A DNA stretch of 62,660 nucleotides, counting the filler, from Parachlamydiales bacterium (lineage in GTDB: Bacteria; Chlamydiota; Chlamydiia; Chlamydiales; Parachlamydiaceae): the NCBI GenBank assembly GCA_020051075.1. It is 6 parts of 6 records of this genome, joined end to end, with 100 filler letters (N's around TTAATTAATTAA, not from the genome) between each part and the next. Parts side by side here need not be neighbours in the genome. Positions count along the whole stretch, not along the records: positions 35,111 to 41,990 come from JAGVJP010000073.1; 5 more parts are not named here. One strand, written 5' to 3'. Below are positions 35,111 through 40,475 of the stretch, piece by piece (positions within the stretch are counted from its first letter, which is position 1; every line of letters begins with the position of its first letter). The notes beneath the pieces were generated by a model. It was not told the origin of the DNA. It saw nothing but the letters and a program-made list of their open reading frames with translations, and did no database searches. Both the position numbers and the translations under genes were made by a program.

Positions 35111-36421
35111 AATCCCGTCTGGATGAGTGATCGTTCGGCTGAACAGAATGGCAAACGCCTGATTAAAATCGAGATAATTAGTGAAAAAACCCCTTAACAC
35201 AGTTTCGAGACTTTGTCTAAAATATTGCCCACGCAGAGGTTCCAAAGCACGCGTATCAAAACATAAAAGGATTTTGGCACTTGCGGCTCTTTCGATTGTC
35301 AGCCTTAAAGAGGTGACAACAGCGAGTTCGGTATCAAGGCCACGGGTATCGAGGAATCCCCCGCAGTCGGCAAAGGTGAAGGGAATTCCAGCACGTTCAT
35401 AAACGACAGTTTTATACGTTTCTGATTGAACGGCATTTTGTCCAATTCTTGCTATCTCAACGTGTCCATCAGCAACTCTGGCTTGCCCTGTGGCAGGATC
35501 TCTTACGATTGGCAATCTGAGAAGGTGGTTGACGATTGTGCTTTTTCCTGTGCCAGTTGCCCCGATCACGGCAACGACACTTTTACCCGCTGCTGCTGCT
35601 GATTCTCCATCCAGTGGTTGAAGCGCACGGACAGCTTGTCCTAGCATCTCCTGGCCGATCGGGATGTTTAATGGAGCTGCCCGATGAGCCGCGAGTGTCC
35701 GTTCGCGGAACTGCCCGATTGCTGCATGAGCAGTTTGCAGGACGGTGATTCTTAGGTGATCAATCAAACCGATCAGTTGTGCTAAAGCTTCAATCCGCCC
35801 ATATCTTTCATGGCGCTGTTGTTCAATCAAAGCTAAGGCAGCCTGGTTTTGTGCAATCCGCTGTTCTAGTTGAGCGATTCTAGCAAGAGTGCCGTCTCGG
35901 TCACCTCGAGCTTGATCCAATTTTCGCTGTTCTCCCTGCAAAGTCGCTAACAACAACGGTCTGGCTGCTACCGCCTGCTCTAGGCGAGCTCTCTCTGCCA
36001 GGAGATTGTTTTCTTGACCGTTAGCCGTATCTAATAACTGAATTTTTTTTTGGATTTCTCCTTGATAGTAATCTTTTTTCCAAACGTGGATTCTTACTCG
36101 AGGTGCACTGACGATATGACCACCACGATCCCACCAAGATGCCTCACTTAATCCAGCTGCTAAATATCTATCACGCACTGTCGTATAACTTTCATTTTGA
36201 CATATTCCTCCTAAAGAGTGTAATCCGACGCAACCGTGAGGGAAGTGTAGTAAATACCAATTTTGCCCAACCCCACCTTCGCCTCTTTGAGGGCCAGCTC
36301 TTCGGCTATGCAAACCGGCTGTAGTGCAGTAATAATCCATTATTGGGTTCATTTCTAGATGCCGAATGATCTCTGCAGGTCCAAATCTAATATGGTATCC
36401 ACAAGATAAACACACTCCCAT
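35111..36421 (-). CDS. P-loop GTPase paralog 3 (N-terminal domain, coiled coil, then GTPase); C-terminus cut by the contig end
   Basis: GATGTGKS (G1), SET (G2) and DCGGFLDTRG (G3). GGAGG RBS. Starts MGVCLS. Confidence 0.8.
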
Positions 36422-36466
36422 TGCTAGCCCTCCCCTGTTTGTTTTTGATTAAACTGAGGACAAGCG

Positions 36467-38491: not shown

Positions 38492-38510
38492 GTTTCATGA
38501 AGTCCTTTAT

Positions 38511-40475
38511 CTACTGCGCAGGAGCAGGTTGTTGATAGAGGCGGTATTTTTCTAAAAATTGTACAATCAACGGTTGTCGAGCGACATGTTCATCCTGACT
38601 TAATCTTAAATAGTCATTCAGGAATTGGAAATCGGCTTCTCGAGCAGTGATCTGCCTTTCAAGATCTTCTCGAGCAGCATGCGCTTCAGCTATTGTCTGA
38701 TTCAATGCACCACGAGCCGTTTCAAGCTCCGCAATCTGTGCACGGATCCCTTCTAATTCATTGACATGGCACTGTGCAGCAACTATGATGTTTTGTGCTT
38801 GATTGCGCAATGCTAAATGCGTTGCTATTTGTGCATTGAGACCGGCCTTTTCCTGCACCAACTGCGTTTGTTCTGTTGTTAATTCGATGCGCTTATGCTG
38901 TTCCTGAGGATCGTCCCCTTTTGCAATAATCACTCTTATGCTTGCATTGGCATCTTTTCCCTCACCAGATGAATAGTGGATTTTATATGAGGTTTTATCT
39001 GGCGACTCAACTTCGCCAATCCAACTCCCTTCACCAGTTTTTTCGACTCGAATATATTTTGGACCACGATACTCAAAATCCCGTTCATGAGACTTTCCTG
39101 GAATATCTGGAAGGGTCGTTGTCGTTACGGTAGTTTTCCCTCCGATCCCCAAAAAGCCCCTTGTTGATGTCTTGGTAGTGACTGTTGAACCCTTCACACC
39201 AGGAATTCCTTTTTGATTGATCCCCTGACTCCAGTACTCAATTTCTTGAATCGCCTCACGATCCCACTGAGCAAGCCTTGCACGTACAGCTTCAATAGCA
39301 GCATCTTTTTCTGCCACCTGCCCTTGTAATCCTTCAATAGCAGCGTTTTGTGTTTGAACAATCTGTTGCTGTTGTTGAATGAGCTCTTGTTTGGCCTGGG
39401 CAATTTCTGCTACAGAATTCCTTGTAGTATCAAGTCTTTGAGCAGCATTTTGTAGTCTAGTGATCTGTTGATTAAGTTCAGCTAAAGCCCCATTATGCCG
39501 TCCTATCGCCTCTATTTGGGTTTGGCGCCCATCTAACAGCCCTATTCCTCCTAGCACAATTTGTGTAACCCCTCGAGTCATTGCAGCTAGCGTCTCGGCC
39601 GAATACGCTACATTGAATTTTCCTCTTGGTTCAGTAATCCCCTCCATATCACGAAAGAGATCCTCTAAACGCTCCCGAGGACGATCAGGATGTAATGGAC
39701 GATAGGTTTTGAGATAACGCCCCCCTTCTCTCAAAATAAATTGAAAGAGAGCTTGCTGCTCTCCGCCCGGTAGAGCATCGTCTATATAACCTTGAAGTGT
39801 AGCTCTTGCATCGCCATCAGGATCATCCTCCGTATGATACCATCCCTCTACTGAAAGACGCGGTTTTGTTAAAATGAGTGCGATCGAGCGAGATGATAAG
39901 CGATAATCCCCAACTAATAGATCATCATAGACCTGAATAAGAAGATCGCATAAGTCCCCCCCTCTTCTGATTTCGATACCATTGGAATCATAGCAAACGC
40001 CTATACGAACAGTTCGCGCGTTTTCCAGCATGATCTTCATCGCAACAGCATTAACCACTTGATAAACAGGGCCTCTTGTATCGCGAAAACCGCCAGAATC
40101 GACATACGTGAAAGGAAGACCGTCTTCATGATAGGCTCGTGCATACAACGTTTCTGAATGAACTCGATTATGGCCTATGGTAGCAATTGCTACATCATCT
40201 GGATGAACATCAATTCGAAATTGTCCATTAACAAACCCTCCCACAAGCCGTTTCCGATGCAACGCATTAAGCATCGTGCTTTTACCGGAACCTGTTGGCC
40301 CAATTAAAACAACGATGTCCCGGCCAATCGATTGGTTTCCGAAAACCATCGCTTGTCTCAGCATGTCGAGTAATTCTGTTCCGAACTGACCATGTTCCCC
40401 ATTGGGCCGAATCTCTGCTTGAGGTAGATTCGGTCCCCCTGCACCTACTGGTGCCACTCCTTGTGCTGCCATCAT
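38511..40475 (-). CDS. P-loop GTPase paralog 1 (septin/AIG1-like GTPase with a coiled-coil stalk and beta insert)
   Basis: GPTGSGKS, SET, DSGGFRDTRG and TKP motifs. Coiled coils flank TTKTSTRGFLGIGGKTTVTTT. AGGAG RBS. Confidence 0.82.
   Translation of the reverse strand: MMAAQGVAPVGAGGPNLPQAEIRPNGEHGQFGTELLDMLRQAMVFGNQSIGRDIVVLIGPTGSGKSTMLNALHRKRLVGGFVNGQFRIDVHPDDVAIATIGHNRVHSETLYARAYHEDGLPFTYVDSGGFRDTRGPVYQVVNAVAMKIMLENARTVRIGVCYDSNGIEIRRGGDLCDLLIQVYDDLLVGDYRLSSRSIALILTKPRLSVEGWYHTEDDPDGDARATLQGYIDDALPGGEQQALFQFILREGGRYLKTYRPLHPDRPRERLEDLFRDMEGITEPRGKFNVAYSAETLAAMTRGVTQIVLGGIGLLDGRQTQIEAIGRHNGALAELNQQITRLQNAAQRLDTTRNSVAEIAQAKQELIQQQQQIVQTQNAAIEGLQGQVAEKDAAIEAVRARLAQWDREAIQEIEYWSQGINQKGIPGVKGSTVTTKTSTRGFLGIGGKTTVTTTTLPDIPGKSHERDFEYRGPKYIRVEKTGEGSWIGEVESPDKTSYKIHYSSGEGKDANASIRVIIAKGDDPQEQHKRIELTTEQTQLVQEKAGLNAQIATHLALRNQAQNIIVAAQCHVNELEGIRAQIAELETARGALNQTIAEAHAAREDLERQITAREADFQFLNDYLRLSQDEHVARQPLIVQFLEKYRLYQQPAPAQ

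Follow-up and report, generated by a model that had tools for sequence, protein, structure and literature searches.

Three tandem GTPase genes at the end of a contig from a Parachlamydiales bacterium (source genome G000) raise the question of what kind of system they encode. The genes, here called g1, g2 and g3, lie on contig C98, at positions 35111-41990 of the window, the whole 62,660-nucleotide stretch of DNA that was analyzed, in which contigs are joined by N spacers. An initial annotation of this DNA described an operon of three paralogous septin- or AIG1-like GTPases with a head-stalk-tip layout that might act on host or inclusion membranes or in phage defense. The reading that we favor, and that we regard as evenly balanced between right and wrong, is that a single large GTPase of the GIMAP/septin type is present here in two forms, A (g1 and g2) and B (g3), and that the secreted pair coats, tethers or bends host or inclusion membranes.

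A three-gene GTPase locus in an environmental chlamydia

38511..40475, minus strand: g1, form A GTPase of 654 amino acids (aa), with G domain, outgoing helices, β tip and return helix
40278-40301, 40071-40100 and 39861-39869, minus strand: g1 motifs G1, G3 and TKP, respectively
39124..39202, minus strand: g1 tip hairpin extension, differing between strains, with the hydrophobic apex GFLGIGG at 39138-39158
36467..38425, minus strand: g2, form A GTPase of 652 aa, with Lys in place of the family-conserved Arg after strand 4
37619..38317, minus strand: G domain of g2 (aa 37-269), with a fold like that of GIMAP, septin and Toc34
36884..37216, minus strand: g2 β tip (aa 404-514), with a low-confidence hairpin at 419-454 and the apex ALFWKK at 37109-37126
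35111..36421, minus strand: g3, GTPase of the circularly permuted form B, represented by its 5' 437 codons, with G1 at 35540-35563
36401..36421, minus strand: g3 N terminus MGVCLSC, an N-myristoylation and S-acylation-like motif
35011..35110, no strand: artificial spacer between contigs C97 and C98; the DNA to its left is not linked

As first annotated, the three genes are co-oriented and closely spaced (gaps of 85 nt between g1 and g2 and 45 nt between g2 and g3), and a purine-rich motif resembling a ribosome-binding site precedes each ATG (AGGAGA, AAAGGAGG and GGGGAGG). The third gene is cut by the contig end, leaving C98 at 35111 after 437 aa. The shared motifs GxTGxGKS (G1), SET and D(S/C)GGxxDTRG are present in all three proteins and TKP in g1 and g2, again as annotated; g3 has SRT instead of TKP. 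The first two proteins are 31% identical over 660 aa (E 2e-81), far above chance, and are paralogs. The third is 42% identical to g2 over 171 aa and resembles both (41-42%) in the G domain only. Its layout differs from theirs because the G domain, which begins at aa 287, sits behind a β domain and a long helix. The head-stalk-tip order holds for g1 and g2 but not for the permuted g3. In a related strain, one contig runs from g2 into the beginning of g3 and shows 5 differences over 2,201 nt. Scans of the locus for promoters and terminators returned nothing usable (15 against 9.6 ± 2.7, and 7 against 5.6 ± 2.4, in shuffles).

The source genome measures 2.9 Mb, at 99.9% completeness and 5.7% contamination. 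It has type III secretion, with SctV scoring above the cut-off as the sole apparatus gene found, and encodes three TLC nucleotide (ATP/ADP) translocases. Named close homologs of the GTPases come from Parachlamydia and from an uncultured Chlamydiae genome. We infer that the bacterium is an environmental chlamydia living in a protist.

Form A is predicted to carry a β tip on a two-helix rod

An AlphaFold model of g2, built from 4 sequences (predicted local distance difference test [pLDDT] 76.8, predicted template modeling score [pTM] 0.52), has a disordered start, a G domain (residues 37-269), helices at 286-341 and 348-401, a β domain (404-514), a return helix (519-607) and three short C-terminal helices. 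The β-rich insert of the initial annotation is thus recovered: it and its motifs are seen in both g1 and g2, and in g2 its strands are flanked by long helices. The tip is all-β in both predicted models, that of g2 and that of the form B protein of genome G319. For its fold, Atlas gave no usable match, and whole-model fold searches barely probe it.

With Foldseek, the g2 model matches dynamin (5a3f), BDLP, a dynamin-like protein of bacteria (2j68), and the Campylobacter dynamin-like protein (DLP; 5owv) at E<1e-3 and TM of about 0.15-0.18; GIMAP7, Toc34 and GBP1 are also among its matches, and mitofusin is a further Foldseek match. For the head, a VIA comparison places GIMAP4 at the top (Z 13.8, root-mean-square deviation [rmsd] 3.1, 155 aligned), level with EngB; a second GIMAP4/7 head match has Z 14.0, rmsd 3.0 and 178 aligned, and GIMAP4/7 comes first for both models. 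These matches agree with the earlier assignment of the G domain to the septin/AIG1/Toc34 type. Residues 335-581 match the two-helix coil of Rad50 (VIA: Z 10.9, rmsd 2.6, 126 aligned). From such fold matches, rather than from coordinates, we deduce that the stalk is probably a rod of two antiparallel helices ending in a β tip, unlike BDLP with its four-helix trunk and its paddle. The rod is predicted to be ∼13 nm long, from its 88-residue helix, which would hold the tip distant from the head. The bacterial dynamin-like topology proposed at the outset is therefore upheld for the antiparallel stalk and distal tip and revised in their make-up.

No transmembrane helix was found in 16 proteins, in which the top 19-residue hydropathy is 1.68, outside the tip. 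The tip does carry a hairpin in form A whose apex, a GFLGFG-like hexamer that is aromatic or glycine-rich and interface-seeking, clusters at one fixed position. Scored in 28 of the 29 core form A rows, which are related and so not independent, the apex surpasses its own shuffles in interface-seeking character in 23/28 and a stalk segment in 27/28. In g1 the hairpin takes 23 of the 28 differences from a related strain, counted over a 1,007-nt piece from one low-depth contig (run X1). Glycine-zipper-like hairpins occur in the G256 form A protein (L004:9215-11986) and in P0042, P0049 and P0053.

Form B, a circularly permuted counterpart of form A

Profile alignment identifies g3 and its relatives as a circular permutation of form A, opened within the β tip. 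With HHalign, the part of form A behind the head matches the part of form B before the head at 97.8% (E 9e-13, 186 columns), against 2.6% for a reversed control. The β tip alone gives 96.2% and a score of 47, where 30 column shuffles reach at most 15. The tip of g3 has insertions, and its similarity to the tips of other form B proteins lies chiefly in the last strand (81.6%, 18 columns).

The G319 model, built from form B rows alone (pLDDT 87.6), comprises a tip (21-78), a helix (84-169), the head, a second long helix (478-579) and end strands. For its two terminal long helices, a match is the SMC coiled coil 5xg2 (Z 12.2, rmsd 9.5, 230 aligned); the first and last long helices would thus pair like an SMC coil, so that both chain ends reach the tip. 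In the model, the N terminus of form B enters where the hairpin of form A returns.

A quick, midpoint-rooted tree of 99 G domains puts all form B rows inside one group and form A rows outside it (support 94). The tree has 8 changes, which would suggest several origins of form B, but a single clade is not rejected (p-AU 0.27, 49 core rows), and several origins were set aside. The simplest account, and the most likely one, is that form A was duplicated in tandem and that form B is read from mid-copy to mid-copy across the two.

The two forms stay paired across three families

Matches better than 1e-50 occur in at least 5 of the 400 phylum genomes scored, with six candidates per genome. The 151 best-matching proteins divide into 44 of form A, 20 of form B and 87 of neither; counts here and below rest on related proteins and are not independent. 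Form A lies directly before form B, on one strand, in G000 (twice), G122, G319, G256 and G160, which span three families, and also on the metagenome contig L054. The tandem pairing noted at first is kept in six loci. The two forms might still be independent, homo-oligomeric paralogs that are adjacent merely because local duplication produced form B. GTPases of the wider family are likewise tandem (G058, G122, G220), and G000 has additional form A copies and a remnant. Since all six loci retain both forms, in the same order, at about 30-50% identity, we consider this distinctly unlikely.

The nucleotide-binding motifs are intact. Among 51 core rows, the P-loop Lys is kept in 50, the switch-I Thr and the G3 Asp in all 51, and an Arg after strand 4 in 42. 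From its position, we infer that this Arg is the equivalent of the G-interface arginine finger that septins, Toc34 and GIMAPs use (available text of PMC10996617). It is Lys in g2, and the form A copy on contig C58 lacks both the Arg and the P-loop Lys (GVSS P-loop).

The wider G-domain family has 2,250 representatives at 1e-10, among them proteins with several domains from endosymbionts of other lineages. Distant proteins such as P0072, P0075, P0090, P0104, P0118 and P0144, among others, carry, behind the G domain, a tip resembling that of form A and may reveal the source of the architecture. At L045:4302-8778, three tandem wider-family GTPases of ∼490 aa include two with the CaaX-like ends CAVQ and CAVS.

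The view that no named family accounts for these proteins also stands. Among named families, only the generic MMR_HSR1 passes a cut-off. AIG1 has no match to g1-g3 at E 0.1 and weak matches in 3 of 42 wider-family G domains (best 3.8e-5); the Septin family gives none for g1-g3 and one weak match among the same 42. PADLOC returns weak P-loop and coiled-coil matches only, none of them strong.

A putatively exposed glycine at the start of form B

The g3 protein begins MGVCLSC, without a pro-domain; M-G-x-x-x-S/T with a nearby Cys is found at 2 of the 1,980 first-Met open reading frame (ORF) starts of G000. Many relatives begin with a pro-domain of 90 residues that closes with xGG. It was found in 8 of 400 genomes, and unrelated proteins carry it as well. 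The residue behind xGG is Gly in 14/14 form B proteins and in L054, against 2/9 of form A and 0/8 other cargo proteins. The fuller motif G-x-x-x-S/T follows in 12/14 of form B and 0/9 of form A; in L054 the Gly is there and the Ser is missing. Left out of the counts were two pro-domain matches, P0023 (no GG) and P0052 (unclassed). Fisher tests of form B against form A give p 1e-4 for Gly and 7e-5 for the motif, values overstated by kinship. Among form B proteins found after the idea had been noted, 10/10 have the Gly and 7/10 the full motif.

G-x-x-x-S/T is the consensus for myristoylation. Bacterial effectors can be myristoylated and palmitoylated by the host, also after processing, as for AvrPphB, the signal being Gly2 with a proximal Cys (available text of PMC4951486). 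A ubiquitin fold of the pro-domain is not supported: Atlas gave no usable match and no ubiquitin, and Pfam none. The pro-domain on unrelated cargo (L069-L072, L075 and L076), often followed by Met, has the look of a mobile effector leader.

A gene for an FxsB/YhhB-type radical S-adenosylmethionine (SAM) enzyme lies directly behind form B in G122, G319, G256 and L054.

L042:11448-13376: cyclophane radical SAM gene behind form B
L043:6561-8384: cyclophane radical SAM gene behind form B
L004:14152-15843: cyclophane radical SAM gene behind form B
L054:3329-5233: cyclophane radical SAM gene behind form B

The closest clade of this enzyme (59-67% identity) is confined to 3 of 401 genomes, in all of which it stands directly behind form B. 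As an obligate partner it was rejected, since it was not found in G000 or G160. Triceptide enzymes cross-link aromatic-x-x motifs, His included (available text of PMC11499958), and the segment behind xGG has 3-5 aromatics in 16 residues in 12/14 form B proteins and none in 8/9 of form A. [quoted passage not shown] The restriction of the clade to loci with form B, its score above the FxsB cut-off and the aromatic-rich segment suit a RiPP-like core, as does the lack of a His/Ser-rich segment in the two genomes that lack the enzyme (G000 and G160). A core of this kind would leave the invariant Gly1 unexplained, and g3 starts MGVCLSC though no enzyme was found in G000. Moreover, the triceptide substrates described in the available text of PMC11499958 are precursor peptides.

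A second cluster, contig ends and CaaX motifs

G000 has a second cluster on contig C58, consisting of a form B 3' piece ending in CCLM, a form A remnant, gene C, a form A gene and a form B 5' piece. Contig C17 shares a 99-nt overlap with both form B 5' pieces of the genome, and from its base 109 it matches the far end of C58. The simplest contig path is C98-C58-C17, which would give g3 the CaaX end, though C58 could stem from a second strain. The remnant (L001:5768-6712) encodes 315 aa without a G domain, g2-like at its start and g1-like in its C-terminal part.

CaaX was rejected as a feature of the family: because 0/64 form A and form B rows have it, we regard it as local to the C58 3' piece and some wider-family members. 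Genome-wide, 8 of the 1,214 ORFs of at least 300 aa in G000 have CaaX-like ends, five of them over 1,000 aa, and Cys at position -4 is found in 25 ORFs against 14 expected. Large ORFs with such ends (CFIL, CMIL, CTIV, CVIA, CAIL and others) lie on contigs C47 (three ORFs of 1,092-2,075 aa), C50, C53, C79, C82 and C129 and are candidate host-prenylated effectors.

Elsewhere in the window, an imperfect tandem repeat of ∼111 nt lies at 34425-34757 on contig C97, beyond the spacer and unlinked to the GTPase genes. Short dispersed repeats with many genome copies, some in both orientations, occupy 30860-31144, 23436-23620 and several contig ends. The segments at 5502-8850 and 4-3533 have copies 85-88% identical on contigs C19 and C84, through paralogy or a second strain.

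A model for the pair at host membranes

In our preferred model of a secreted pair, forms A and B would both be exported into the protist host. Form A would hold the bilayer through the hydrophobic hairpin apex at its tip. Form B would be anchored, also at the tip, by myristate (and in g3 palmitate) that the host adds to Gly1, exposed directly or once the pro-domain has been removed at xGG. GTP-dependent head-to-head dimerization of the G domains through the conserved Arg would drive assembly, paralogs without this Arg or the P-loop Lys acting as regulators, and tip-bound A and B would coat, tether or bend the host or inclusion membrane. Head-to-head dimerization is found in dynamins, septins, Toc34 and GIMAPs alike, and dynamins typically bind membranes through the tip of the stalk (available text of PMC5084822). 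Paired bacterial DLPs form hetero-oligomers, according to the accessible part of PMC6104087.

A more specific version would make the pair a heteropolymer of a protein with its own circular permutant, working as a host-directed mechanochemical machine. The permutation would have moved the chain ends to the tip, where host lipids replace the hydrophobic hairpin; the xGG pro-domain would be a cleavable cap with a ubiquitin-like tail; and in some lineages the radical SAM enzyme would put cyclophane cross-links into a 600-residue protein where a peptide is usual. Taken jointly, these propositions strike us as unlikely to hold.

Several observations weigh against the secreted-pair reading. Its support comes from sequence and models, and the latter have pTM values of 0.52 (g2) and 0.60 (G319 form B), which leave the head-stalk angle uncertain, with a hairpin pLDDT <50. 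The lead of GIMAP over EngB and MnmE is only about 1 Z or less, and sequence similarity to septins (SEPT3/9; E about 6e-7) is confined to G1-G3. The first strand of the form A tip is matched weakly by the form B C terminus (15.8%). A heptad Fourier test is significant in 1 of 11 segments, and in 1 of the 5 helical ones (g1 300-405); the "coiled coil" of the initial annotation is thus a label for the stalk that rests on models and fold matches. At the N terminus, 6 of 20 form B rows, some of them fragments, have neither a detected pro-domain nor an MG start; the C58 form B copy lacks the lipidation-like motif; and cleavage at xGG presupposes a protease. Residue 4 behind xGG is aromatic in 10 of 14 form B proteins and a cyclophane radical SAM gene follows form B in four loci, so the G-x-x-x-S/T motif may serve that enzyme. 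At the other end, 0/20 class B rows end in CaaX.

Gene C bears on a different role for the GTPases.

L001:3573-5675: gene C, on contig C58
L042:4048-6216: gene C
L044:5601-7259: gene C

Its product is helical with an 11-residue amphipathic period, carries the xGG pro-domain in 2/3 cases, and has a weak apolipoprotein match (E 0.004) and no Pfam match above cut-off. It is linked to the A-B pair in 3/5 genomes (G000, on C58; G122; and G160) and was rejected as an obligate partner, since the query used recovered it in neither G256 nor G319. The GTPases could be host-directed, lipid-anchored scaffolds or decoys instead of membrane remodelers, for example ones that pair with and jam host AIG1/GIMAP or septin-like GTPases, or that tether lipid droplets together with gene C. 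This role would suit the variable hairpin, the degenerate paralogs (the GVSS P-loop on C58 and the lost Arg of g2) and a two-helix rod that offers little of the polymerizing surface of a dynamin stalk. It sits poorly with catalytic motifs that are near-invariant in the 51 core members and with A+B pairing kept across three families, and we judge it unlikely.

A pair that stays inside the bacterium, for envelope repair or anti-phage defense in the manner of DynA or Eleos, appears very improbable to us. The distribution is patchy, the genes are paired as in bacterial DLPs (available text of PMC6104087), and LeoBC profiles match weakly (10/29 of form A and 1/20 of form B, best E 8e-8), as do those of LeoA (4/29 and 1/20), with none for g1-g3 at E 0.01. 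Against an internal role, form B keeps Gly at its exposed start, the xGG pro-domain is also found on unrelated cargo, PADLOC gives no strong match, no transmembrane helix is present and the neighbors, judged by eye, look like housekeeping genes. Bacteria are not known to have N-myristoyltransferase or CaaX transferases, which also counts against it. Of the two settings first proposed, the host or inclusion membrane accords with an intracellular chlamydia, and the two-helix, β-tipped stalk and the permuted g3 with its lipidation-like N terminus lead us to prefer the host cell over phage defense.

Comparison with known systems

The nearest precedent is provided by the GIMAP/AIG1 effectors of amoeba endosymbionts, noted in 2012 with the pro-domains APD1/2 (available text of PMC3417536 and PMC3482391). 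Those of Amoebophilus have a related G domain (L005 and L006, at about 26%) and N-terminal pro-domains, and the same texts suggest a role in remodeling the host membrane around the symbiont. [quoted passage not shown] The xGG pro-domain profile gives no score on the Amoebophilaceae proteins L005-L007.

Like BDLP1, Campylobacter DLP1/DLP2, LeoA/Eleos and DynA, the proteins have paired genes, a distal tip and, in the form A model, an N-terminal dynamin-superfamily G domain with helices that run out and back. In contrast to the four-helix neck and trunk with a paddle of those pairs, they have a two-helix stalk, a β tip, a head that seems closer to GIMAPs and a permuted partner. Superposition on BDLP gives an rmsd of 18.9, and the models show neither the four-helix neck/trunk nor a helical paddle or transmembrane tip. 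Eleos is itself related to GIMAPs, according to the available text of bioRxiv 2022.12.12.520048. With GIMAPs, Toc34 and septins, the family shares the best head fold match (narrowly ahead of or level with EngB), the DxxGxxD context and an Arg that probably lies near the arginine-finger position. It departs from them in its ∼300-residue stalk with a β tip, the lack of a transmembrane anchor and the absence of AIG1 or Septin Pfam assignments.

IRG GTPases carry an N-terminal myristate. GBP1 is likewise a large lipid-anchored GTPase, with a C-terminal CaaX, and has a catalytic P-loop Arg (available text of PMC5084822); in the 13 rows inspected here, the P-loops are of the GxTGxGKS type without Arg. 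The stalk also differs from those of GBP1 and IRGs, and bacterial genes would need host transferases. In AvrPphB and NopT, processing bares a Gly for host myristoylation and palmitoylation (available text of PMC4951486). The signature of host-acylated type III effectors, Gly in a G-x-x-x-S/T context at the mature start with a Cys nearby, is seen in MGVCLSC of g3, and G-x-x-x-S/T behind xGG in the 12 form B proteins counted above. AvrPphB and NopT are self-cleaving proteases, whereas in this family xGG closes off a distinct pro-domain of 90 residues.

A literature search, with most subscription journals outside it, found no description of a β-tip rod, a permuted partner or an acylation signal of this kind. 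Considered together, sequence features and models place the family as a putative dynamin-superfamily-like membrane GTPase that falls outside BDLP, septins, GIMAPs and GBPs on the features tested; it is a real, conserved variant and apparently undescribed. Recruiting or blocking the dynamin-family GTPases of a host is a known practice of bacteria; if the secreted-pair reading is true, a symbiont that supplies its own lipid-anchored, two-subunit GTPase would have a direct way to shape or defend the chlamydial inclusion. The locus is also a clean case of natural circular permutation in which the two forms have stayed neighbors, the putative gain being a lipidatable end at the tip. Standing between GIMAP/septin heads and dynamin-like bodies, the family bears on the common origin of septins and dynamins proposed in the available text of PMC5084822.

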